Assembly (NCBI GenBank): GCA_016841625.1
Contig: JAENYU010000041.1
Coordinates: 1 to 24,000, forward strand
Origin: Methanobacteriota archaeon
Lineage (GTDB): Archaea > Halobacteriota > Methanosarcinia > Methanosarcinales > Methanosarcinaceae
Reading direction: 5' to 3'
DNA length: 24,000 nucleotides
Below, in pieces: positions 1-19,346 of the stretch. The first letter of the stretch is position 1. Each line of letters starts with the position of its first letter. The notes beneath the pieces were generated by a model that worked only from the letters and a program-made list of their open reading frames with translations, had not been told where the DNA came from and searched no databases. The position numbers and the translations under genes were made by a program.

Positions 1-42
1 TTTATTTAACTATCGAAATTAATATGAAAATAGTGGGAACTG

Positions 43-201
43 TCAAACTAAGGCTTCAATCGAATCGGCAAAGGCAAAGAGGGCATCAACACGACGGACT
101 ATTTCGTGCTGTTCGGGGAGGGGTGGGAGTGGGAGAGGGCAGTAACGGATTGAAGAAGTTTTTGGTAAATAAAAAAGAAAAACTAAATTTTGAGCAACTA
201 C
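43..201 (-). pseudogene. hsdS: Relic of the conserved region of a type I restriction-modification specificity subunit (HsdS)
   Basis: The minus-strand frame reads ...[32 protein letters not shown]. The block LPPLxEQxxIVxxVDxLxxxxD is the hallmark conserved region of HsdS (compare EcoKI [22 protein letters not shown]). Only about 30 aa are recognisable and there is no target-recognition domain. The relic is bounded by stops and forms a G+C-rich patch inside AT-rich DNA. Confidence 0.55.
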
Positions 202-1104
202 TCAAAAAACCCCGAGACTTTGCTCTTTTGATTTATTAGATATTTTAAGATATACTTCGTTAATTTTATTTATACAAAATAATCTGTTTTCATCGATTAC
301 TTTGACTAAATCCTCTGTGATTTGAAGTTCATCACGTTTATACGTAACACTTTTTCTTTTTTGAAGTATAATTTCATTTTTATCAGGGTAAGACCAGACG
401 GCATCGTGTGCAACTCTATTTCTAATGGATTTTATAAATTCTAATTTTTCATTGATCTCCTTTGTAATGCTCGTTTCTATGCCTTCTTCTTTGCATATTT
501 TTAAAAAAATGTTCTTTTTCTTGTCAAAATTTAATGTTATTATAATTAGATCTTCTAAAAGAAAGGTCTTCCTACTCTGTGGTGTACAAAAGTAGTTTGA
601 GATAAAAAAATCTAAATAGTCTTCAATGTGTACTGCCATCCTCAATATTTCACCACATTTTTCATTGAAGTTTTTATTTATATCTTCAATATCGACTTGC
701 TTTCCAGTAAGCAAATCTAAAAAATCATCATCAACGTAACAGAAAGATTGTGGTGCTTTAAAATCAGTAATTAATGAGTATGGATCGAAAGATTTTGGGA
801 AAATTTCTAGGTTTTCAATTGTAATTGCAAAACCTTGTTGCTTATTCCTGAAATAATTAAAGAAATTTTCTTTTCCAATCCCAGCAAAATCATTGCATTG
901 CTCCCATAATTCATTTGGGCTTCCTTTAATGATTTTACCAATTGTAAAGGCACCTATAATTTTTTTTACGGGATGACTTGAATAAATGAATACCTTTTTT
1001 ATTTCGTGGGGAGTTCTGAATATTACTCTTCTAAACTCATATTTTTTACTCCCATTAATTATTTCTTCAACATAAGTTGGTTTAATTGACAGTAAAACGT
1101 TCAT
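202..1104 (-). CDS. ASCH (PUA-like) domain protein fused to a C-terminal HEPN-like domain
   Basis: 300-aa ORF. The N-terminal ~125 aa fit the ASCH pattern: LLSIKPTYVEEIINGSKKYEFRR, VFIYSSHPVKKIIGAFTIGKII, SPNELWEQ, APQSFCYV. The C-terminal helical half carries an Rx4H HEPN signature (SIRNRVAHD). GAGG lies about 9 nt upstream of the ATG. The ATG sits 23 nt inside the upstream ORF, which suggests translational coupling. Confidence 0.75.
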   Translation of the reverse strand: MNVLLSIKPTYVEEIINGSKKYEFRRVIFRTPHEIKKVFIYSSHPVKKIIGAFTIGKIIKGSPNELWEQCNDFAGIGKENFFNYFRNKQQGFAITIENLEIFPKSFDPYSLITDFKAPQSFCYVDDDFLDLLTGKQVDIEDINKNFNEKCGEILRMAVHIEDYLDFFISNYFCTPQSRKTFLLEDLIIITLNFDKKKNIFLKICKEEGIETSITKEINEKLEFIKSIRNRVAHDAVWSYPDKNEIILQKRKSVTYKRDELQITEDLVKVIDENRLFCINKINEVYLKISNKSKEQSLGVF

Positions 1105-2605
1105 CGATTAGGCCTCGTTTTCTCAATAAAAGGTATTCTTCATGAGTTATCTGAGTTATGCTTTGGGGGGCAGCTTTTAAAATTCCAATTTCCTTTAATT
1201 CTTCCAATCCTAAAGGATTTGGCAAATGAAAATGCCATGTAAATAATATAACCAAAACGGGTTTTTTTGCGAAGTATTCAATTTCTGCTATTGGATAGAC
1301 AGATCTCTTTGCGATATATCGAATTATTTCTTCTTTGTTTTGAATTCCATTAAGCGCCTTTTCAACAACTCCTAATGAAGTTACAGCACTTTCATCTTGT
1401 GAACGATAAAATAATATAATGTCTCCACTTGAGATTTTTTTTATGTTTGAATGGCAAACATAGGCTTTTTTAATGGCATTACCTTCAATGATAAATCTAC
1501 CTGCAAACTCATCTAATGTAGGTTGCCTTCCTTTTTTTTGCTTGCTTTTATATTCGGTGAACAGCTTTTTGTGCCACTCCGGAAGAATAGGTACTATGAA
1601 TTTATTTACGTTTTTTCCATCACAATAACTAGGGTAATATTTTTTTGACATTTCATTTGCATTTATGTATTCAGTTTTGCTTTCATAAACAAGTTTTTTA
1701 AGGAATACTTTCTCCCCGCTCTGATTGAGAGTGGATACATTTTCGAAACCATACTCACTGATTAGATCAACAAGAAAATCGGAAGGTTTTATAAAATGAG
1801 TAAGATATATCTCATTGATTTTATTCTTGATTGAATAATCAACTGCAAGTTTGATAAAAAGTTCTCCAATTATGTTTCCTATATGGGATACTTTAAATGT
1901 GGACAACTTCAGCCTTTTTTTCTTGAAAAGTGGAGGTGTTGAATCTATCGGTTCGCATTCTACCTTATAAATTAGTAAGGCTCCAAGTTTCCCATTTTCT
2001 TTGAGATGGACAAAACATTTTCTACCTTCCCTTGAGATCCTCTTGAACCAATTTTCAAAATTATTTTCTCCATACTCTTCTTTTAGAGAATCGAAAAATT
2101 GATCATTTAAATCTAAATTGTAGACAAATTCATCTCTCAGGGCTGGAAGATGTGATATATTATTTGTATATACTCTATTTCCAAAGATCTCAATAGCTTC
2201 GTCAACTGATAACACACGATCTTTGATCCCCAAACGTTTAGATTTTTGGTGGATGTTATGATCACTTGTAATTAAAAAATCAGCAGCATCTTTATAAATT
2301 GCATACAGTATTGAATTATCAATTTCATCATTAATTTTTGATGGATTCCCAACAGCATTAAGGAACTCTTCATCCTTCACTGGATTAGGGGGGGATTCTA
2401 ATAATGGGTATGCTCCGATTTTTGATAAAACTATAATTTTTCTATTTTCATCAGTATCTCTTTTTATATCTTCGATTGAACCCGGATGTATGAGTATGCT
2501 TGCCTTTACTTGATAAAGGATTTTTACTAAATTCTGAATATTTAAAGAAAGAACTTTGTAATCCTCTCTATAAATAAATATATTCGTGTCAATCAATATA
2601 CGCAT
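1082..2605 (-). CDS. PIN - GNAT-like - ASCH/PUA-like triple-domain protein
   Basis: 507-aa ORF. The N-terminus is a classic PIN domain (MRILIDTNIFIY ... DFLITSDHN, with the acidic residues present). The middle is GNAT-like (GALLIYKVE ... LKLSTFKVSHIGNIIGELFIKLAVDYS ... EIYLTHF ... LISEYGFE ... GEKVFLKKL). The C-terminus is PUA-like (KKISSGDIILFYRSQDESAVTSLGVVEKA ... VLVILFTWHF ... AAPQSITQI) and shares the (A/P)PQS motif with the downstream ASCH protein. Confidence 0.75.
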   Translation of the reverse strand: MRILIDTNIFIYREDYKVLSLNIQNLVKILYQVKASILIHPGSIEDIKRDTDENRKIIVLSKIGAYPLLESPPNPVKDEEFLNAVGNPSKINDEIDNSILYAIYKDAADFLITSDHNIHQKSKRLGIKDRVLSVDEAIEIFGNRVYTNNISHLPALRDEFVYNLDLNDQFFDSLKEEYGENNFENWFKRISREGRKCFVHLKENGKLGALLIYKVECEPIDSTPPLFKKKRLKLSTFKVSHIGNIIGELFIKLAVDYSIKNKINEIYLTHFIKPSDFLVDLISEYGFENVSTLNQSGEKVFLKKLVYESKTEYINANEMSKKYYPSYCDGKNVNKFIVPILPEWHKKLFTEYKSKQKKGRQPTLDEFAGRFIIEGNAIKKAYVCHSNIKKISSGDIILFYRSQDESAVTSLGVVEKALNGIQNKEEIIRYIAKRSVYPIAEIEYFAKKPVLVILFTWHFHLPNPLGLEELKEIGILKAAPQSITQITHEEYLLLRKRGLIDERFTVN

Positions 2606-2789
2606 GTTATTACTTCTTGTAAGGTCTTCTTTAATAAAAATATGTTTGTTTATTCTTAAAGGATCATCTTAAATAAATATAATGTCTACATTTTAGATAT
2701 ATTGATTTTGTTTCGATCTGATGGTTTTTCAATTGAAGACTTTCATGAGGTTCATTGGTTGTAAATTCAAGGATAGTTGGTGTGTTTAA
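2606..2789. promoter_or_regulatory. Divergent AT-rich control region of the ASCH/GNAT cassette
   Basis: A 184-bp gap lies between the divergently oriented ORFs. TATA-like boxes occur on both strands (aaataaatataatg about 2671-2684; ttttagatatatt about 2691-2703). A perfect 10-bp palindrome TTCAATTGAA sits at 2728-2737. GGTG lies 7 nt upstream of the TTG start at 2790. Promoter assignment is inferred, not demonstrated. Confidence 0.3.
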
Positions 2790-4664
2790 TTGGAGAAAGA
2801 GGAATACCAATTTAAAGTACTTTATCTCAAAAATGAACTTGACAGTGTTAAACTTCTACTACAAGATGCTCCTGAGTTTCAGAAACATTATCTAGATTTT
2901 AATAGATGGCTTGATAATGCATTAAAAGAAGCTCAGGAAGGAAAAAGGCTAGTTTATGCTTTGTATCGGCCAATTATGGATAATGGAAATCCTATATTAC
3001 AAATGATTGGTGTAGCTTTCATAAAAATAACTGGACAAACAGCTGAATTGAAAAGTCTGTTTGTTCATGATAGCTCACGAGGGTCTGATAGAAAATATGG
3101 GAGTCATCTATACAAAAATGTAGAAGAGCAATTAGCAAAAAAGGGAGTCTCCAAGATAATTACCGATGTTCCCTGCGAGAATAATCAGGTAAGTTGGTTT
3201 CTTATTCAACATGGTTTTCAGATTAACGGTTTAATTGAAAGGTACAAAAAAGATGACTTTTGTTATATTTTATCTAAAGATGTTAAATCATACTATACAG
3301 GGGATATTTTTGATTGGTATAATGTTGTGAGTTGGTTTTTGGAAAATGTATATCAGTTTGAAATTGGAGAACCTGATATTCTGAATTCAGATAAAATGCT
3401 ACTTATTCCAATATTAAACAATAATAAAAATTTAAGGGTGCCTTTGTTACCATCTTTAAAAGGTATTTCTTTAGTATACGATGTGATGGAAGAAAGTGAT
3501 CTGTTAGTTGTCGATAGTTTATTAGAGAGAATAGATGGAAGCATTCGCATCGTTTTCGCAAAAGAGTTTGGTGATGGGATTGTAGCTAAACTTAATGAAA
3601 ATCATTTTTTAACGTTTGACCAGAATCAGGTCTTTGAATTATGTGGTTGCCCAGATCTCATCTTTGAAAAAGATGAGATTAAGGGGATTATTGTTGAAAT
3701 GAAAAATGATTATTTTGGACGAATAGATGAAGAGTTAGAATACTTTACTTATGTAAAAGGGGCAGGTATTGGAAAATTTGCCAAAAAAGACGATTTTGTA
3801 TTGTTCTTTGTTGATCGTCACGATAAATATCCACAAGGTGCCCTAATGGGTTTTGGAAAAATTAAAAAAATTTCATGTGCGTCCCCAAAAGAACAATGGA
3901 TTCATTATGGACAATTAAATCCCCTTTTTTCGCAGCAGGAATTTGATCAGTTCACGAGTTATAAAAAAGAAGTAATTGGAATTGTAGTCGAAGATTTTAC
4001 GAAAATCTCTCCTATTTCTCATGATGAATTCAGGACTCTGTTCTCAGGAGTAATTTCTACTGAAGACATTGGAAATATGTATGTAAATGAAGATTTCATG
4101 GAGATATTTATGGAAGATGTATCAAATGAAATGAAATCTATAGAAAATAAGGAAATAAGTAATAATGATCCAAATGGTACAAATGACACTGCTCTATTAT
4201 CACCCGAAAAACCCTACAGCAATATTAGAAATTTGAGACTTTCTCTTGAGAATTGTAAAACATTTATTTGGTGGATAGATAAACACTTCAGTAAAAAAGG
4301 GTTTGAGCCGTTAGCAGAGATTGTGGATGCCAACAAGGTACAAAATATCAGAATCTTAATGGGCAATAGCAATGTAAATGATAGCATGAAAAAAGATTAT
4401 GAAAGATTCAAAAGTGAAATGAACAATAAAGAAATCGAAGTCGAATGCCGAGTTATATCAGACTCAAGTCTTTTAAATAAAATTCATGATAGATGGGTTA
4501 TAGCTGAAAATGTAACATATAATCTCCCACCCATAAACACGATTTATCAGAATCAATTTGCTGAAATCAAAAAAACAAACATTTCACTCCCCTTTGATGA
4601 TTGGTGGGATCAAGGAATTGAATTAATTTCAGGCTGGAATTCTATTTTAAGCGCAAAAAAGTGA
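2790..4664 (+). CDS. GNAT acetyltransferase - ASCH/PUA-like - C-terminal MIT_C/PLD-fold-like multidomain protein
   Basis: 624-aa ORF. It opens directly after an in-frame TAA, so the TTG at 2790 is the only start that keeps the GNAT domain intact. GNAT: IGVAFIKITGQTAELKSLFVHDSSRGSDRKYGSHLYKNVEEQLAKKGVSKIITDV...NNQVSWFLIQHGFQ. The mid region parallels the ASCH protein (DDFVLFFVD...MGFGKIKKISCASPKEQWIHYG...VIGIVVEDFTKI). An Asn-rich linker follows. The C-terminal ~150 aa (FIWWIDKHF...IRILMG...EIEVECRVI...KIHDRWVIAENVTYNLP) follow, as I recall it, the strand/HDR pattern of the MITD1 C-terminal PLD-fold domain. Confidence 0.7.
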   Translation: MEKEEYQFKVLYLKNELDSVKLLLQDAPEFQKHYLDFNRWLDNALKEAQEGKRLVYALYRPIMDNGNPILQMIGVAFIKITGQTAELKSLFVHDSSRGSDRKYGSHLYKNVEEQLAKKGVSKIITDVPCENNQVSWFLIQHGFQINGLIERYKKDDFCYILSKDVKSYYTGDIFDWYNVVSWFLENVYQFEIGEPDILNSDKMLLIPILNNNKNLRVPLLPSLKGISLVYDVMEESDLLVVDSLLERIDGSIRIVFAKEFGDGIVAKLNENHFLTFDQNQVFELCGCPDLIFEKDEIKGIIVEMKNDYFGRIDEELEYFTYVKGAGIGKFAKKDDFVLFFVDRHDKYPQGALMGFGKIKKISCASPKEQWIHYGQLNPLFSQQEFDQFTSYKKEVIGIVVEDFTKISPISHDEFRTLFSGVISTEDIGNMYVNEDFMEIFMEDVSNEMKSIENKEISNNDPNGTNDTALLSPEKPYSNIRNLRLSLENCKTFIWWIDKHFSKKGFEPLAEIVDANKVQNIRILMGNSNVNDSMKKDYERFKSEMNNKEIEVECRVISDSSLLNKIHDRWVIAENVTYNLPPINTIYQNQFAEIKKTNISLPFDDWWDQGIELISGWNSILSAKK

Positions 4665-4673
4665 AAGGTTCAA

Positions 4674-4700
4674 GGAAAAGCCGCTTCGCTTCGCGAACGG
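4674..4700 (+). repeat. Copy A of the recurring GGAnAAGCCGCTT hairpin element
   Basis: The sequence is ggaaaagccgcttcgcttcgcgaacgg. The first 20 nt are identical to 15822-15841. It can fold as CCG-C-TTCGC / loop TTC / GCGAA-CGG. It sits in the convergent gap at the right edge of AT-rich island 1. Confidence 0.6.
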
Positions 4701-4719
4701 GACAGAACAGCCATTTTGC

Positions 4720-6975
4720 TCACCCAGACTGCTTGCTTTTCCCCTTCCCCTTCCCCTCCCCAAACTTCGCATACATTTTCCTGGCATATTTTTTCAGCAG
4801 GTAATTCAGGCTCTCCTTCGAAATCGGTTTTGACTTCTTGACCACCATTACCGGCTTTCTGGCATGTATGGCGACCCTCTGGGACAGGGTCCCGAGCAGG
4901 GAAACCTTGAACCTCTGGCTGGAGTCGCCGATGATTGTCAGGTCGCTGTAATTTGAGGCTTCGAGGATGGCGTCTTCTATGGAGTATCTTTCCAGGAGTT
5001 TGAAGCTGACGGGTATCTGGGTTATGTTTTTGGATAGGGTTTCAAGTTCTTCGGAGATTTCCTTTTTCTCCTCCGGGGTCTCATCGGGGCTTATGATTCT
5101 GATTATTTCTATGGCAGCCCCGGTGTTTACAGCCAGTTTTTTTGCCAGGTGAAGGCCGTGGCTGGAATTTTCCTTTCCGTTATATGCTACAAGGATTTTC
5201 TTTATTTTTTCCGGGAGCTTTCCTTTTAATAAAGCGATCTGCTTTTTTGAGGACGAGAGGACGCCGTTTGTGACTTCTCCGAGGTAGTACTGGAATCCCT
5301 TTGCTTCGTGCCACCCCAGGATAATCAGGTCTACGCTCTCTATTTCAGCCTGTTCTATTATTGAATTTGAGATCCTGTGGTCAAAGGCAACTATATATTC
5401 TCTTTTCTGTCCGAAAATTGCAGGGTAGCGGTCAAACTTTTCTTTGAAACGAGTATCCATCTCTATCTTCTTTTCGTGGTAGGCATCCTGAGCTAACTTC
5501 AAGTTTGTCTGGTCAGGGACTTCAATCACATGGAGGCAAATTATCTCGCTTCCCAGGCAATCGGCAAGCTTCAAAAGGTCGCGTTCGTGTGCGGGATTGG
5601 AAATGGGTACCAGTACTTTAGCCACGGAGTCGGGTTTTATGTGCGTTTTTTCGACCGTGTTTTCCAGCAGGTCAAATAAGTTGTATTCCGGCATGGCTTT
5701 GCCCCTTCCATAGAACCGGTACCAGACAGCTCCTATGAATACCAGAATTAAGATGAAAAGGAAAGGAAAAATCCCAAGCAGCGGCAGCAATATTATGCTC
5801 CCGACAACCCCTATGATCTGGGTGAAAGGGAAAAAAGGGTCACGGAACGCAGGTTCGTATCCGGGTAAAGTCCGTTTTCTGAGGATTATTACTGCCATAT
5901 TCAGCAGGATAAATATCAAAATGTTAAAAGCGCCGCCGAGTCTTGCCAGTTCCTCTATATCAAAGAGGAATAGGAGCACGACCATTACGATTCCTGTGAC
6001 CAGGATCGCATTATGGGGAGTCCCGTACTTTTTATGGACCAGGACAAACCATTCCGGCATCAGGGCATCTCTGCTCATAGCAAAAGGAAACCTTGAAGAC
6101 GAAAGTATGGCACCGTTGGCTGTGGAAAGCGTTGCAAGCAGGGCAGCAAGGACAATAGCGATCCTCCCGAATTTTCCTGCCATCAGGCCTGCTATATCTG
6201 CCAGGGGAGTGACCAGAGTTGCGGTCCCTTCAGCCCCTGAGAACCCGACGACTGCTATCATTATGCCGACATAGAACAGGGTTACTACAACTGCTGAAGC
6301 AATAAACGCTCTCGGTAAGTTCTTTGCCGGGTTTTTTACTTCCTCAGAGACCGCTGCAAGTTCTGCCAGTCCCAGGTAAGATATGAAAATAATTCCTGTT
6401 GTGGTGATTATCGATGTCATCCCATAAGGTGTGACAGGGGAAAAGTTAGCCGGCTCAATCCTGAAAAATAATCCGGCTATGAATAAAAGCAGTATTGCCA
6501 GCAGGAGGATCACAATAACGTTCTGCAGCGAACCGCTGCTTTTTGCACCGCGGTAATTAATTGCTAACAGGAGAACTCCCGTGGCAGCTGCTACGAAATA
6601 GAGCGGCAGGGGATAGAAAAGCTGAAAATACTCTGCAAGCCCGATCAGGGCAAACGTCCCTTTGAATATCAATGCCATCCAGGAGCCAAGCCCGATTACC
6701 GCCCCGAATGCAGCCCCCATTGTCCTGCTGATGTAGTAATAGCTGCCGCCTGCAAGGGGCATGCCTGTTGCCAGCTCTGCCATACTGATGGCTGTGGCTA
6801 TTGAAATTATCCCGGCCAGCAGAAAGGAGATTATTGCTCCGGGGCCGGCATTTGCTATGGCTATTCCCGGAAGAATGAATATTCCAGCTCCGATCATCGT
6901 CCCGGTCCCTATTGTGAAAGTCGAGAAAAAGCCCAGGCTGCGCCCCAGCCTCTCCGTTGTTTCAACTGCTGCCAT
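4720..6975 (-). CDS. APC-superfamily amino acid permease fused to tandem C-terminal universal stress protein (UspA) domains
   Basis: 751-aa ORF. The N-terminal ~440 aa are polytopic with the typical APC start (FSTFTIGTGTMIGAGIFILPG). The C-terminal ~300 aa contain two Usp-like alpha/beta modules (KVLVPISNPAHE...DLIILGWH ; KILVAYNGKENSSHGLHLAKKLA...DLTIIGDS). The protein ends in a Gly/Lys tail. Confidence 0.85.
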   Translation of the reverse strand: MAAVETTERLGRSLGFFSTFTIGTGTMIGAGIFILPGIAIANAGPGAIISFLLAGIISIATAISMAELATGMPLAGGSYYYISRTMGAAFGAVIGLGSWMALIFKGTFALIGLAEYFQLFYPLPLYFVAAATGVLLLAINYRGAKSSGSLQNVIVILLLAILLLFIAGLFFRIEPANFSPVTPYGMTSIITTTGIIFISYLGLAELAAVSEEVKNPAKNLPRAFIASAVVVTLFYVGIMIAVVGFSGAEGTATLVTPLADIAGLMAGKFGRIAIVLAALLATLSTANGAILSSSRFPFAMSRDALMPEWFVLVHKKYGTPHNAILVTGIVMVVLLFLFDIEELARLGGAFNILIFILLNMAVIILRKRTLPGYEPAFRDPFFPFTQIIGVVGSIILLPLLGIFPFLFILILVFIGAVWYRFYGRGKAMPEYNLFDLLENTVEKTHIKPDSVAKVLVPISNPAHERDLLKLADCLGSEIICLHVIEVPDQTNLKLAQDAYHEKKIEMDTRFKEKFDRYPAIFGQKREYIVAFDHRISNSIIEQAEIESVDLIILGWHEAKGFQYYLGEVTNGVLSSSKKQIALLKGKLPEKIKKILVAYNGKENSSHGLHLAKKLAVNTGAAIEIIRIISPDETPEEKKEISEELETLSKNITQIPVSFKLLERYSIEDAILEASNYSDLTIIGDSSQRFKVSLLGTLSQRVAIHARKPVMVVKKSKPISKESLNYLLKKYARKMYAKFGEGKGKGKSKQSG

Positions 6976-9824: not shown

Positions 9825-10283
9825 GGATTATGCCCGTTATCATGGTCAAAAAAAGACTCAGAAACGGGTTCTGATTCTCAGAAGTGATAAAACTGATCGC
9901 AGCCACAGCAAGAGCAGCGCCAATAGGGTCTATAATGATACCTTCCCACAGCAACACCGAAGCTACCGGTTCCCTGGGACGGGCAAAGCTGAGAATCGGC
10001 CCCACCACTGTGGGACCGGACACCACCAGCAAAGCAGATAGGATAAATGCCAGCTTAAAAGAGACATCAAGCAGTAAAAGCACAGCCCCGATGCCTATGC
10101 CCAGTGTTACACCCCAACAATGACCAGACGCCAGACAGCGGTGCTCATACCGGGCTGTGAATTTTTCAGACGGAGCTCAAATCCGCCTCTGCGTACTACA
10201 CTCTTGCTTAACAGCATTACTACGCGGTCGCGGAAAATCTCACTGGTTTTTTCAATGACCGGGGTTTCGCTGATGCTGCACAA
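9805..10283 (-). pseudogene. Frameshifted, doubly truncated relic of a CPA1/NhaP-type cation:proton antiporter
   Basis: Two minus-strand frames join around 10108-10120. One reads ...DRVVMLLSKSVVRRGGFELRLKNSQPGMSTAVWRLVIVGV*. The other reads GVTLGIGIGAVLLLLDVSFKLAFILSALLVVSGPTVVGPILSFARPREPVASVLLWEGIIIDPIGAALAV. This resembles TM3-TM6 of Na+/H+ antiporters. No N-terminus or C-terminal half is present. Confidence 0.45.
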
Positions 10284-11534
10284 TCATTTTGCCTGTAATT
10301 TGAGCTTCTGCTCCTTTGCCACAAAGGTCCGCAGGAGAGACAGCGAGATATGTGCAGTAACAACGGCAAGGCCAACAGGAGCCATGGCGATGGGACCAAT
10401 GCCAACCGTGCCGGCCGCTATCAGTACCAGGGAAACCGGTGCGCTCAGGAAAGCACCCGGTACCGCCGCCAGCATAGCTCCAACACACAGTGCAATGGGG
10501 AGATCAGGGAAAATGCTGTGTACCAGGAGCCCCGCTGTTCCACCAATAAAGATTATGGGAAAGACGATACCCCCCAAAAAGCCGCTTGATTCACTTAACG
10601 CCACTGCGAACATTTTGGCGATCAGGACGGCAACAAGAAAACCGAACCCGATTGTGGCGGAAATCTGAAGTTCGGTAGCAAGCTGGCTGCTGCCGGAGGT
10701 CGCCGTAAGAGGGAGGGCGAATGCGATCAGGCCGACAATTGCACCACCGATCGTACCAGCCACAAGAGGATTGGGGATGCGCGCGAATGCGGCTGAAACC
10801 ACCTTTCTAATGAGGATTAAGAGCAGCAGTACGAATGCGGACAACACACCGAGCAGTGCTCCTACCAGCAGATAACCGAAAGAAAACTCATACGCCGGAA
10901 GTGCATAGGAACCCAGCATCGTGCTGCCTGTCACGCCAAAAAAAATGGCAAATCCGACGGTTGCTCCGAACAGTTCGGGAATGAACGCGGCCAGATAGTT
11001 ACGCTTCGGGGTCGGCCCGAGTTCAGACGCCAGCACTGCCGCAAACAGGGGGGCGCTGAAAGCGGCTCCCATACCACTTACCATACCGGTTAACGCATAC
11101 TCATGCTTTGCCTCGTCATCACGTATTCCCAGGCGCAATGCAAGCCATGAGCCGATACCGCCACCCATCATGGTGAGGGCAAAAAACGGGCCCAGACTTG
11201 CGCCGGCAATGAGTGAAACTGCTGATATCGCAACCAGGGAGAGTACATTCCCCGGATCGACCCACGCCTGGTGAGCGAGTGTTATCGGATCGGTAACTTT
11301 TTCTGGAATCTTCCAGATTTTGCGCATCACGGCAACCGTAAGCCCCCCAAGGGCTGTCAATGGTATCCACCACCAGTTGCCGGTCCACCAATCAGTACCG
11401 GTGCCACTATAGAAAAAGTCACTTCCTGCACCTATAATTCCCATGAAAAGGAGAGCTGAAACTCCCCCAACCACTCCAATTAGTAGTGCAAGCACTAGAA
11501 GCTTTTTGTACCACGGTTTCTCAAGTGGAAGCAT
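10284..11534 (-). CDS. ClC (voltage-gated chloride channel) family membrane protein, non-canonical selectivity motifs
   Basis: 416-aa polytopic ORF with ClC-like blocks: IAGASLGPFFALTMMGGGIGSWLA, GMGAAFSAPLFAAVLASEL, GFLGGIVFPIIFIGGTAGLL. There are no CBS domains. The GSGIP and GxEGP motifs are not canonical. Confidence 0.65.
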   Translation of the reverse strand: MLPLEKPWYKKLLVLALLIGVVGGVSALLFMGIIGAGSDFFYSGTGTDWWTGNWWWIPLTALGGLTVAVMRKIWKIPEKVTDPITLAHQAWVDPGNVLSLVAISAVSLIAGASLGPFFALTMMGGGIGSWLALRLGIRDDEAKHEYALTGMVSGMGAAFSAPLFAAVLASELGPTPKRNYLAAFIPELFGATVGFAIFFGVTGSTMLGSYALPAYEFSFGYLLVGALLGVLSAFVLLLLILIRKVVSAAFARIPNPLVAGTIGGAIVGLIAFALPLTATSGSSQLATELQISATIGFGFLVAVLIAKMFAVALSESSGFLGGIVFPIIFIGGTAGLLVHSIFPDLPIALCVGAMLAAVPGAFLSAPVSLVLIAAGTVGIGPIAMAPVGLAVVTAHISLSLLRTFVAKEQKLKLQAK

Positions 11535-16477: not shown

Positions 16478-17890
16478 ATGGATCATCAACAAGCAAATAC
16501 TTCCATGAAAAAGAGAGTTACAGATTTAATTGTTATCTTTTCTGATGGACTGTACGAACGAGAAGAGATTGTTGCAGTTTCTCTTCTTTCAGTCCTTTCC
16601 GGGCAGTCAATTTTTTTATATGGCTTGCCAGGCACAGCGAAAAGTCTAATTGCCCGTCGTATATCAAAGGTGTTTAAAGATACAACTCATTTTGAGTATT
16701 TGATGCAAAGATTTAGCACTCCTGAAGATGTTTTTGGACCTGTAAGTATTCGAGAACTAAAACAGGACAATTACATTCGCAAAACAGAAGGCTACTTACC
16801 CACTGCTGACTTTGCTTTTCTTGATGAAATATGGAAAAGTAGTCCAGCCATTTTAAACACACTCTTGACTATTATAAATGAGCGAATTTATCGCAATGGC
16901 GGAAAAGACGAAAAAGTTCCATTAAAAGCATTGATTGCTGCAAGTAATGAGACTCCACCACCCAATCAAGGATTAGAAGCTCTCTATGACCGTTTTGTAA
17001 TGCGAGTAATAGTAAATCCTATGGAAGAAAGAGAGAATTTTGAAAAACTACTTGAAGGAGATGCTGTCTCGACTGATATTGAAATTCCGGATGGACTACA
17101 GTTTACTCACGATGAGTTTGAGCAACTTTCCAGTGAAATCGTTAAAGTAACAATTTCCAAAGAGGTATTTACCATCATAAATTCAATCAGAGTTTCACTT
17201 GATGAATTTAATAAAGATAATCCCAAAATTGCAGTTTATGTTTCTGATCGTAGGTGGCAGAAAATTGCACTCATTTTGAAAACATCTGCATTTTTGTGTG
17301 ACCGCACTGAGGTAATACCCGTTGATGCCCTTATATTACGACATTGTTTGTGGACACTTGAACAAAATAGAGAGCAAATTAATGAAATAATTGAAAAATG
17401 TGTGAAACAGTTTGGCTGCACCAACAATGAGAAGTTAAATAGCTGGGAATTGAACCATAAGGACCTTGAAAAAGGTATGTCTGATACATTCTTTTATACG
17501 GAAAATATTTATGACACCGAGAAAAAAGAAAATGTGCTAAATTATGGTGGGAAGTCCGGTTATGACAACGATTCATTTGTCAAATGGTTTGATTCAACTC
17601 CATCCATAAAAGTTAAAAAGGGAACTCAAAAGGCTGTGGCCCCAAGGACTAAAGATACTTTTGTTAAAGCTTGTGAAGATTCTTTGAGTTCACTTGCTGA
17701 AATTATTAATGACGCAAAATCTAATGTCGCTATTCAAAAAAAATTGAATGAAACCCCATTTGTACCTTCAGAAAAAAGAGAATTAGTGTTTGATGTATTC
17801 AACTCTTTTCTCAAAGATTTAGAAAACCACAAATTGAATGCCGAGCGTTTGTTGGAAAAGGTGCAATCTTATGCAATCTCCGAATCGTGA
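16478..17890 (+). CDS. ravA: RavA-like MoxR-class AAA+ ATPase
   Basis: 470-aa ORF, colinear with the E. coli RavA AAA+ module as I recall it: LYEREEIVAVSLLSVLSGQSIFLYGLPGTAKSLIARR (Walker A), FEYLMQRFSTPEDVFGP, ADFAFLDEIWKSSPAILNTLLTIINER (Walker B), LIAASNE (sensor 1), LEALYDRF (Arg finger), VSDRRWQKIALILKTSAFLCDRTEVIPVDALILRHCLW. The C-terminal ~170 aa diverge and I see no evident LARA-like domain. Confidence 0.85.
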   Translation: MDHQQANTSMKKRVTDLIVIFSDGLYEREEIVAVSLLSVLSGQSIFLYGLPGTAKSLIARRISKVFKDTTHFEYLMQRFSTPEDVFGPVSIRELKQDNYIRKTEGYLPTADFAFLDEIWKSSPAILNTLLTIINERIYRNGGKDEKVPLKALIAASNETPPPNQGLEALYDRFVMRVIVNPMEERENFEKLLEGDAVSTDIEIPDGLQFTHDEFEQLSSEIVKVTISKEVFTIINSIRVSLDEFNKDNPKIAVYVSDRRWQKIALILKTSAFLCDRTEVIPVDALILRHCLWTLEQNREQINEIIEKCVKQFGCTNNEKLNSWELNHKDLEKGMSDTFFYTENIYDTEKKENVLNYGGKSGYDNDSFVKWFDSTPSIKVKKGTQKAVAPRTKDTFVKACEDSLSSLAEIINDAKSNVAIQKKLNETPFVPSEKRELVFDVFNSFLKDLENHKLNAERLLEKVQSYAISES

Positions 17891-19346
17891 AATTGCTAAA
17901 ACAGAGGAATTAGTCAATACTTTTCTTTCAGAAGATTTCCCTGATCTAAATAGTGGAGAACTTGAAAAAGAATTGAGTGGAAAAGTTAGTAATTGGGAGG
18001 AGTCAACTCTCAGTTATTTAGAAAACTCAAACCCTTTTGAAAAACATCGGTCTAAATTGGTCTCTGCAAAATGGGATTTTCTGGCACATGGTGGCTCTGA
18101 AAAGTCAATTATAAGCGATTTAGAGGAATATAAGTCACTCCAACCATCCGCAGATGTTATGTTTTGGGAAGAAAAGACACTTGCTGTGAAAAAAAAGGTA
18201 GAGGAAAAGGAGAAAGAGTCAATCATAGAAAGCCTTAATGTTATTCGTAGGAATGAGCAAGAAGCATGGAGAACAGAGTATGAAAAACAATTACTTGAAT
18301 GGCAACTCAAAGAAATCCAAAATCGCCGGGAACAATTGTTAAAAGAGTTAAAAGAATGGCTTGACCCTTTACAGCAAATGAAAGAGGTATTTGATGAGTT
18401 GGGTGTTGAGCCTGGACTTTTGTGGGATTCAAGTGTTGGCAAATTAAGTAAGCAAGACATATCTTTCCTTAAACAATGGGCAGAATATCTGAAAAATAAT
18501 GAAAGCGTTCGTAATTTATGTGAATTAATGGGAAGATTACATAAAGAACAACAATCTCATCACAAAGAGATTATTAATTCAACCGTTCAATATACTGTTA
18601 TAAAACCAGATATATATTCCAATGAAGAGATTGTTGGTATTGAGCTTGGTAGAGATTTAGAAAATGTTATACCACAAGAATTGGCTCTATTAAGTGACTC
18701 TGATATTGCATTGCTTTTTGACTTGAAATATGTTGAAAATCGACTGATGTGTTTTTCTCAACAGGGCTACAAAACAGAAATCTTTGAAGAGAACATTCAG
18801 AAAACCGTAAGCATTGTTGATGATGAAAAGATGGGGCCGATAATTATTTGTGTTGATACAAGTGGATCTATGTCAGGTGCTCCAGAGAATATAGCTAAAG
18901 CATTAACTCTTAGTTTGTCATCTCGAGCAGTTTCTCAAAAGAGAAAATGTTATTTGATAAATTTCAGTACTTCAATAGAGACCCTTGATCTTACCCCTCC
19001 GAAAGGCATTCATGATTTGATAAACTTTCTTAAAATGAGTTTTCATGGGGGCACCAATGTTGCACCAGCTTTACACGAGGGGGTACGGATGATGTTGGAA
19101 GCTGATTACAAAAAAGCGGATTTATTGGTTATTTCAGATTTTGTTCTCTATGGTTTATCTTCTAATATTGTTTCCCAGTGCAAAAAGCAAAAACAAGAGG
19201 ATAATCGCTTTTTTGCATTGTCCATCGGTAGTTTTGACCCTCAGCGTGTTGATGAAGATGTTTTTGATCAGAGTTGGACATATAACCCTCAAAGTGGTGG
19301 CATTTCAGAAATCAACAATGTGGTTGAATGTGTTACTCGGAAATAA
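17871..19346 (+). CDS. viaA: ViaA-like protein: coiled-coil-rich N-terminal region plus C-terminal von Willebrand factor A domain with intact MIDAS
   Basis: The ORF is open from 17838, and the ATG at 17871 (MQSPNREI) overlaps the ravA-like stop by 20 nt. VWA/MIDAS: IIICVDTSGSMSG ... CYLINFST ... FHGGTNVAPAL ... ADLLVISDF. This parallels E. coli ViaA (VCVDTSGSM..., CYIMLFST, FRGGTD, VVISDF). The start codon is uncertain (17838 or 17871). Confidence 0.8.
   Translation: MQSPNREIAKTEELVNTFLSEDFPDLNSGELEKELSGKVSNWEESTLSYLENSNPFEKHRSKLVSAKWDFLAHGGSEKSIISDLEEYKSLQPSADVMFWEEKTLAVKKKVEEKEKESIIESLNVIRRNEQEAWRTEYEKQLLEWQLKEIQNRREQLLKELKEWLDPLQQMKEVFDELGVEPGLLWDSSVGKLSKQDISFLKQWAEYLKNNESVRNLCELMGRLHKEQQSHHKEIINSTVQYTVIKPDIYSNEEIVGIELGRDLENVIPQELALLSDSDIALLFDLKYVENRLMCFSQQGYKTEIFEENIQKTVSIVDDEKMGPIIICVDTSGSMSGAPENIAKALTLSLSSRAVSQKRKCYLINFSTSIETLDLTPPKGIHDLINFLKMSFHGGTNVAPALHEGVRMMLEADYKKADLLVISDFVLYGLSSNIVSQCKKQKQEDNRFFALSIGSFDPQRVDEDVFDQSWTYNPQSGGISEINNVVECVTRK

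Follow-up and report, generated by a model that had tools for sequence, protein, structure and literature searches.

A PDC-M11 gene pair in a Methanosarcinaceae contig is accompanied by a linked third gene family and a rare ASCH-HEPN-like fusion

The DNA considered here, hereafter the window, comprises positions 1 to 24,000 of contig JAENYU010000041.1 (24,000 nucleotides (nt); NCBI GenBank assembly GCA_016841625.1) from a Methanobacteriota archaeon assigned to the Methanosarcinaceae, and near its left end lies an AT-rich cassette of three genes, numbered 1 to 3 by position (Table 1). Genes 1 and 2 form a known pair, catalogued as the candidate defence system PDC-M11. What is new is a third gene family linked to this pair, the fusion of an ASCH domain to a HEPN-like domain in gene 1, and, apparently, the connection that sequence comparison makes between the ASCH partner family and ZmASCH, with the deacetylase chemistry known from ASCH proteins. 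The cassette is an extended PIN-GNAT-EVE + ASCH module (PDC-M11), and on balance we lean towards an acetyl-linked toxin or abortive-infection scheme for its action. A first-pass annotation of the sequence alone had called the system undescribed, which has to be given up for two of the three genes in view of Iyer et al. (2013, as cited in later work), the available text of Matelska et al. (2017) and Bell, Wolf and Koonin (2020), the PDC-M11 entry of PADLOC and a phage record that names the pair GevTA.

Gene 2 matches the PADLOC model PDC-M11A over its full length (E-value 1.8e-153, residues 1-506 on model positions 1-500 of 501), and residues 1-132 of gene 1, its adjacent neighbour on the same strand, match PDC-M11B (E-value 1.1e-48), which is the combination by which PDC-M11 is called. 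Payne et al. (2024, bioRxiv 10.1101/2024.01.29.577857) list PDC-M11 as one of 145 candidates whose genes were found inside operons for BREX, DISARM or type I restriction-modification; the main text of that preprint says nothing on the domains of M11. The operon had been described by Iyer et al. (2013), who according to PMC7641849 and PMC5499597 put forward an acetylation of nucleic acids, and by Matelska et al. (2017), who present it as a PIN-GNAT-PUA gene with an ASCH gene (PIN_15/PIN_17) and class it as toxin-antitoxin-like. Bell, Wolf and Koonin (2020, PMC7641849), in the text available, also regard the operon as toxin-antitoxin-like, tie it to type I restriction-modification in archaea and give none of its modules as characterised.

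The window has in common with these (PIN)-GNAT-EVE + ASCH operons the domain order PIN-GNAT-PUA-like, a second gene for a PUA-like (ASCH) protein and the archaeal link to type I systems, and the occasional fusion of their ASCH proteins to HTH, AAA_17 or HsdS recurs among the relatives of gene 1. PDC-M11 as defined consists of two genes, whereas the window adds a HEPN-like domain on M11B and a linked third gene. Neither a GNAT-X-ASCH-effector gene nor an ASCH-HEPN fusion was found in the available text of Matelska et al. (2017) and Bell et al. (2020).

This is a mobile module of toxin-antitoxin-like character that tends to occur in defence islands. Among 80 metagenome loci centred on relatives of gene 2, 68 had room for an ASCH gene and 24 had enough flanking sequence; an ASCH gene directly follows the gene 2 relative in 67 of the 68, and type I restriction-modification (hsd) genes lie within 6 kb of the pair in 8 of the 24. 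At one locus (L004) a complete hsdMMSR operon adjoins the cassette, and in the window the same association takes the form of an hsdS relic directly downstream of gene 1. PDC-M11 is widespread in archaea and bacteria, with more than 1,300 protein clusters from one initial search alone, and the pair occurs on plasmids and prophages. In prophage psiM100 of Methanothermobacter (L098; NC_002628.3, 2501-4346) a full PIN-GNAT-EVE gene, ORFD, precedes ORF5, which encodes the ASCH protein and whose annotation notes its similarity to the ORF5 of psiM2. Most of ORFD falls inside the annotated 'inserted fragment IFa', just past the end of which lies ORF5. The module is therefore carried by an archaeal virus.

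Lambdoid Escherichia coli phages carry a PIN-less form of the pair between cI and kil, and in Escherichia phage PhiR47_2 (L097; PV340567.1, 2989-4417) it is annotated as GevT toxin and GevA antitoxin, encoded with a 23-nt overlap. GevT is matched by the GNAT-EVE part of the hidden Markov model (HMM) built for gene 2 and its relatives (positions 155-501, E-value 2.7e-46), and GevA by the ASCH HMM (E-value 1.1e-36). GevTA thus resembles genes 2 and 1 of the window in the length of the overlap and in its PHROGs, which the two pairs have in common, but differs from them in that GevT is without PIN, GevA is without HEPN, there is no third gene and the setting is a lambdoid prophage immunity region.

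The domains of gene 2 were assigned with the help of 34 homologues. The PIN acids D6, D96 and D115 are invariant across all of them, and Pfam PIN_3 matches 26 of the 34 (the window protein alone, E-value 0.11). The GNAT-like region matches the PHROG phrog_13728 'acetyltransferase' over residues 159-290 (E-value 2e-11), with Pfam Acetyltransf_1 matching 4 of the 34 homologues. For the C-terminal PUA-like domain Pfam names EVE and not ASCH: EVE matches 14 of the 34 (best E-value 1e-5) and the window protein at E-value 2e-3 (18.5 bits, under the cut-off of 23). The first-pass annotation had placed an ASCH/PUA-like module in every protein, which is right in that all three carry a PUA-like module, but the module of gene 2 is probably of the EVE type and not an ASCH domain. 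The motifs said to unite these modules were recovered in pairs, SPxE[LQ]W being common to genes 1 and 3 and (A/P)PQS to genes 1 and 2, with neither in all three.

Gene 1 lies on the strand of gene 2, has 23 nt in common with it and, judged from this arrangement, is probably its translationally coupled ASCH partner. Its N-terminal domain is matched by Pfam ASCH (E-value 3.7e-4), by ZmASCH in the PDB (5GUQ/5GUS, E-value 1e-14) and by phrog_3136, a PHROG that also includes GevA. The octapeptide GxKxxExR (G18, K20, E23, R25) is invariant in the alignment of this domain, and Y41, K47 and S120 are conserved as the equivalents of ZmASCH Tyr47, Lys53 and Ser128. In other ASCH proteins the Lys/Glu dyad of the octapeptide is essential for deacetylation of N4-acetylcytidine in tRNA (ac4C-tRNA; preprint 10.64898/2026.02.27.708502). 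The octapeptide is also common to the YqfB-type ASCH ac4C amidohydrolases (GKER type), and a deacetylase function is predicted for the gene 1 ASCH domain from this likeness.

ZmASCH (PDB 5GUQ; Kim et al. 2017) binds and cleaves single-stranded RNA (ssRNA) and not single-stranded DNA (ssDNA), and it is among the proteins tested for ac4C removal, with ac4C-tRNA deacetylase activity reported (preprint 10.64898/2026.02.27.708502). ZmASCH itself scores as a member of PADLOC PDC-M11B (E-value 8e-29), and therefore one crystal structure and two activities are already on record for the ASCH partner family. This link of the family to ZmASCH and to deacetylase chemistry, drawn here by sequence matching, appears to be new, as no mention of it was found in the available text of the defence papers on the module. 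ZmASCH is a free-standing protein of 147 amino acids (aa), whereas gene 1 adds the HEPN-like domain.

That second domain of gene 1 contains an invariant R228-N-x-x-A-H233 motif (RNRVAH in the window). The region gives sub-threshold matches to pEK499_p136, RiboL-PSP, Abi_2 and DUF4145, and its free-standing homologues match RiboL-PSP-HEPN (E-value 1.7e-4), Abi_2 and AbiU2; altogether four or five HEPN families are matched at E-values of 0.0002-0.2, all under the Pfam cut-offs, and a PDB profile search with the domain returned no match. On motif and profile similarity residues 136-300 are likely a HEPN domain. The domain architectures proposed earlier were largely recovered by profile or structure searches as regards ASCH, PIN, GNAT and the MIT_C/PLD-like tail, with sub-threshold matches for HEPN. 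The ASCH-HEPN-like fusion is a rare and new variant: it was found in six proteins, all Methanosarcina-like, and neither the M11B models of PADLOC nor any of the 80 gene 2-centred loci sampled have the added domain. Elsewhere the HEPN-like domain forms free-standing proteins of ~168 aa, and ASCH partners in other relatives are extended in other ways, at the C-terminus by ~200 aa of another domain, by an AAA_17 ATPase, or at the N-terminus by XRE-HTH.

Gene 3 is covered as a whole by no model in Pfam, PADLOC or PHROG; PADLOC gives one marginal match, of the GNAT region to PDC-M11A (E-value 0.0049). The TTG start is consistent with the N-termini of homologues. The GNAT domain scores 23.5 bits with Pfam Acetyltransf_1 (cut-off 20.7) and matches many GNAT structures in Foldseek, with template modelling (TM) scores of about 0.7. 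For domain X there was no Pfam match, a PDB profile search returned designed low-complexity proteins only, and hhalign comparison with all the other modules gave nothing. The divergent ASCH domain that follows matches ZmASCH (5Y6B/5GUQ) in Foldseek (E-value 4e-8, TM 0.8) and is related to the ASCH domain of gene 1, with reciprocal HMM matches down to 6e-7 and an hhalign E-value of 2e-4 over 124 columns. It is without GxKxxExR and without equivalents of ZmASCH Y47, K53 and S128; where the octapeptide aligns, the window protein has E, E, T and V, and the family as a whole is variable. As the catalytic octapeptide is lacking, this ASCH domain is a reader at most.

The last ~155 aa of gene 3 make up a module in its own right, which is widespread, with more than 100 relatives, and in these nearly always C-terminal. 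Pfam MIT_C matches 11 of 32 tail relatives (best E-value 9e-5), and PADLOC has no model for this domain. An AlphaFold2 (AF2) model built on a deep alignment has a predicted local distance difference test score (pLDDT) of 94, and in Foldseek it resembles PLD3, MITD1, FAM83A, the TrmBL2 C-domain and a Streptomyces PLD (E-values 1e-4 to 4e-2, TM about 0.5). H566 and R568 (motif HDR) are invariant, and N478, W495 and E543 are kept in at least 90% of relatives. The tail also ends large GmrSD_N/DUF262 proteins (P0198, P0214, P0223, P0253), where it replaces the usual DUF1524 nuclease. Many unannotated proteins of ~300 aa were also seen to terminate in this domain.

Within the gene 3 family the C-terminal domain is swappable, being PLD-like in the window and elsewhere HD-CE, PNP_UDP_1, one of two other unnamed tails or none. 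A conserved core with swappable enzyme domains is a layout typical of immune sensor-effector proteins, and by this analogy the swappable tail suggests an effector arm.

The linkage of gene 3 to the pair was assessed with an exhaustive HMMER search, which recovered GNAT-X-ASCH proteins down to about 25% identity, and a sample of 15 distinct loci encoding a family member. An ASCH gene is present at 15 of the 15 loci and a gene 2 (M11A) relative at 14. Four gene orders were seen (divergent as in the window, A-B-3, 3-A-B and A-B-3-HNH), and several lineages have a fused protein, with ASCH placed N-terminally of the gene 3 core (P0186, L015/16, L034, L037). At the exceptional locus, L010, the gene 2 relative has given way to a divergent, PIN-less paralogue of 457 aa (9867-11240, plus strand), flanked by the gene 3 relative and the ASCH gene; this protein is related to gene 3 and begins with a region resembling the gene 3 GNAT (hhalign E-value 3e-5). 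The converse linkage is weak, gene 3 being found at 4 of the 80 gene 2-centred loci and at 2 of the 24 with enough flank. Because the pair is near-constant at gene 3 loci while gene 3 is rare at pair loci, we regard gene 3 as an accessory gene dependent on the pair. It represents a new, uncatalogued family that is obligately linked to the PDC-M11 pair and has swappable C-terminal domains, likely effectors. Among species-representative genomes a narrow gene 3 alignment returned a single locus, identical to L003, and the plasmids and phages searched gave no match to gene 3 relatives.

The GNAT of gene 3 relatives reaches E-value 1.4e-5 against PADLOC M11A. In hhalign, gene 3 taken at full length aligned with the gene 2 family only locally and marginally. 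Shared ancestry of the GNAT-PUA cores of genes 2 and 3 is weakly suggested by the M11A matches and the L010 paralogue. Both proteins appear to be built in parallel on a GevT-like core, gene 2 as PIN + GNAT-PUA with the effector N-terminal and gene 3 as GNAT-X-PUA + effector with the effector C-terminal. Other genes of conflict type were noted near gene 3 relatives: at L013 an HNH_5 nuclease, which follows gene 3 directly, together with an N6_N4 methyltransferase (features 4171-5076 and 5948-6898), and an HD protein and a Peptidase_M78 protein at L011 (9012-11898).

In the acetyl-linked scheme towards which we lean, the harmful components would be the two GNAT-PUA proteins encoded by genes 2 and 3. 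Their PUA-like domains, EVE in the one and divergent ASCH in the other, would dock them on nucleic acid, most likely RNA or tRNA, where the GNAT domain would acetylate the docked target or sense its acetylated form and the attached PIN or PLD-like domain would degrade nucleic acid. The ASCH protein with its Lys/Glu dyad would restrain the toxins, either through removal of the acetyl mark or through direct binding to the toxins; virus infection would disturb the equilibrium, so that the cell would be shut down by the PIN, HEPN-like and PLD-like enzymes (abortive infection). Such a scheme would be comparable to DarTG, a working analogy in which a transferase toxin is countered by the mark-removing enzyme DarG, with acetyl in place of ADP-ribose; the likeness comes from general knowledge only, there being no DarT or DarG homology in the cassette. 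GNAT toxins of the TacT, AtaT and ItaT kind acetylate aminoacyl-tRNA, and the TacT type has small DNA-binding antitoxins and no PUA-like or nuclease domains.

An acetyl write/erase/cleave mechanism is plausible. Hints in its direction are the invariant PIN acids, the Lys/Glu dyad of the gene 1 ASCH domain, the PDC-M11B score of ZmASCH with its activities on RNA, and the gene 3 tail standing in for a nuclease in GmrSD_N proteins. The first-pass idea of writing, reading or erasing, and cleaving fits the evidence and was already anticipated by Iyer et al. (2013, as cited). Its broader reading of the locus as a conflict system has gained from the catalogued status of the pair as a defence candidate, the type I genes near 8 of 24 loci, carriage by prophages and the retention of the PIN acids and of the ASCH residues associated with deacetylation.

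Several observations weigh against the acetyl-linked toxin scheme. The GNAT of PIN-GNAT-PUA proteins is described as being without motif A in the available text of Matelska et al. (2017), and the gene 2 GNAT, without a canonical acetyl-CoA motif A, may on that account be inactive. Motif A of the gene 3 GNAT is partial (RKYGSH in the window against Q/R-x-x-G-x-G/A), with G104 as the sole conserved glycine. The tail of gene 3 has H566-D-R568 instead of the PLD catalytic HxK(x)4D, and the solved folds nearest to its model, MITD1 and TrmBL2, are non-catalytic binders. The HEPN assignment is based on a motif and sub-threshold profile matches, and a HEPN RNase on a supposed antitoxin would be hard to fit with a simple toxin-antitoxin scheme. 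Furthermore, the embedding in restriction-modification operons, the ASCH-HsdS and XRE-HTH fusions, the EVE domain and the presence of the tail in GmrSD-type proteins point to DNA rather than RNA as the target. In the literature searched, no experimental study of PDC-M11, GNAT-EVE, GevT or GevA was found and no publication behind the names GevT and GevA, which are the depositor's annotation.

Of the other accounts, one goes further in the same direction and is, in our view, unlikely but worth stating: a DarTG-like immune or toxin-antitoxin system of reversible nucleic-acid acetylation, in which GNAT-PUA proteins would write acetyl (probably N4-acetylcytosine) on RNA or DNA, GKER-type ASCH proteins would erase it, and non-catalytic PUA-like readers would gate interchangeable PIN, HEPN, PLD-like, HD and PNP effectors, with gene 3 as a new sensor-effector family. 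A restriction-modification-like acetylation of DNA bases, as proposed by Iyer et al. (2013), would have the GNATs mark DNA, EVE and ASCH read the mark and the nucleases cut wrongly marked DNA, with RNA at most a guide. The position of the module within or beside type I operons, including the hsdS relic in the window, speaks for it, as do relatives with ASCH fused to HsdS or XRE-HTH, the modified DNA bases that are the usual EVE ligand (Bell et al. 2020, PMC7641849, in the text available) and the recurrence of the gene 3 tail in GmrSD_N/DUF262 proteins, a family restricting modified DNA. However, PIN and HEPN are typically RNases, ZmASCH cleaves ssRNA and not ssDNA and is reported to deacetylate ac4C-tRNA, no DNA acetyl mark is known in these organisms and motif A of the gene 2 GNAT is degenerate, and we consider this account distinctly improbable.

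We are no more inclined towards a plain addiction module that stabilises a mobile island or the flanking restriction-modification genes without an antiviral role, in which gene 3 and HEPN would be extra toxins. The genes of the pair overlap in nearly all loci and are probably translationally coupled, the phage record labels them toxin and antitoxin, the available text of Matelska et al. (2017) and Bell et al. (2020) classes the module as toxin-antitoxin-like, and plasmids and prophages carry it; yet the cI-kil position in the lambdoid immunity region and the embedding in defence systems are typical of anti-phage genes, swappable PLD, HD and PNP domains are typical of immune sensors, and defence and addiction are compatible with each other. 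That gene 3 is an independent single-gene system that merely lies in the same defence island as PDC-M11 is very unlikely. Its divergent transcription in the window, its absence from 22 of the 24 assessable PDC-M11 loci and the two-gene definition of PDC-M11 in PADLOC would agree with independence, whereas the ASCH gene at 15 of 15 gene 3 loci (down to about 25-30% identity) and M11A at 14 of 15, the immediate adjacency in four different orders, the fusions of ASCH to gene 3 in several lineages and the lack of gene 3 relatives on the plasmids and phages searched argue for dependence. We give still less credence to a housekeeping turnover of RNA acetylation, in which a GNAT writer and an ASCH eraser would tune ac4C in tRNA or rRNA without a role in conflict: the catalytic residues kept in gene 1 are compatible with it, but the cassette is an AT-rich island unlike its surroundings in composition, the module is sporadic and mobile (plasmids, prophages, beside restriction-modification genes) and its proteins are fused to PIN, HEPN, PLD, HD and PNP domains.

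The cassette is a good experimental entry to PDC-M11/GevTA. Its ASCH partner is amenable to testing, with the ZmASCH structure and the reported ssRNA RNase and ac4C-tRNA deacetylase activities at hand and the key residues kept in gene 1. If the acetyl write/erase model is true, it would amount to a new chemical principle in prokaryotic immunity and would give the ASCH deacetylases of preprint 10.64898/2026.02.27.708502 a biological role.

Table 1. Genes, protein domains and other features of the cassette, with positions in the window
Feature	Residues	Position	Strand	Remarks
hsdS relic, C-terminal fragment		46-201 (recognisable motif ~52-138)	minus	directly downstream of gene 1
Gene 1 open reading frame		202-1104	minus	300 aa
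Gene 1 HEPN-like domain	136-300 + stop	202-699	minus	
Gene 1 ASCH domain, PDC-M11B / ZmASCH / GevA type	1-135	700-1104	minus	
Gene 2 open reading frame		1082-2605	minus	507 aa
Gene 2 PUA-like domain, probably EVE-type	325-507 + stop	1082-1633	minus	GAPQS motif at end
Gene 2 GNAT-like domain	about 150-320	1646-2158	minus	atypical motif A (HxGxxxGE)
Gene 2 PIN domain	1-140	2186-2605	minus	
Spacer between genes 2 and 3		2606-2789	none	184 nt, AT-rich, divergent
Gene 3 open reading frame		2790-4664	plus	624 aa, TTG start
Gene 3 GNAT domain	1-170	2790-3299	plus	
Gene 3 domain X	171-292	3300-3665	plus	opens with invariant GDxFDxxxxxxW, conserved across family
Gene 3 divergent ASCH domain	293-452	3666-4145	plus	
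Gene 3 tail, PLD-fold, MIT_C-like	about 467-624 + stop	4188-4664	plus	

The three large open reading frames (ORFs) reported earlier, two overlapping on the minus strand and one divergent, agree with the coordinates, the 23-nt overlap and the strong homologues found here. At ~30% guanine plus cytosine (GC) about 8% of codons are stops, and the chance of a 300-codon ORF, calculated from composition, is ~1e-11; given such lengths and strong homologues for each, genes 1-3 are real and not chance ORFs. Both promoters of the divergent genes 2 and 3 presumably lie within the spacer. The cassette was said to be more AT-rich than the neighbouring permease gene, and GC is indeed 0.28-0.33 over 1-4500, compared with 0.44-0.54 for the gene at 4720-6975, which encodes an amino-acid permease/Usp protein. 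The absence of small antitoxin-type ORFs was likewise seen again: the intergenic stretches among genes 1-3 hold no further ORF of at least 50 aa, and no small RHH, HTH or MNT antitoxin gene was found within 1-4700. Rfam and tRNA scans of the window gave no match.

The hsdS relic beside the cassette was correctly recognised in the first pass. In six-frame translation it shows the motif by which specificity subunits of type I restriction systems characteristically end, and in blastp-short searches it matches HsdS-like ORFs of related loci, several of them directly after the ASCH gene. An hsdS-like ORF occupies the position of the relic at L025, L052, L055, L083 and L085, some apparently intact and some ended by the contig edge, which suggests that the cassette formerly lay within a type I restriction-modification operon, now decayed.

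Repeats in 1-4800 were short, AT-rich or low-complexity pairs only. An imperfect inverted repeat flanking the cassette (111-136/4740-4765; 26 nt, 73% complementary) was considered as an element boundary and rejected, as it pairs G-rich with C-rich low-complexity runs within coding DNA and is probably a low-complexity coincidence. Its G-rich arm (111-136) lies in the hsdS relic and its C-rich arm (4740-4765) where the permease gene encodes a GKGKGK tail. A second AT-rich island of the window (16478-19346, plus strand, GC 0.33-0.40) carries a gene for a bpMoxR-type AAA+ ATPase (PF20030, E-value 1e-51; the name refers to MoxR-vWA-beta-propeller ternary systems) and, next, an overlapping gene for a vWA-domain protein.

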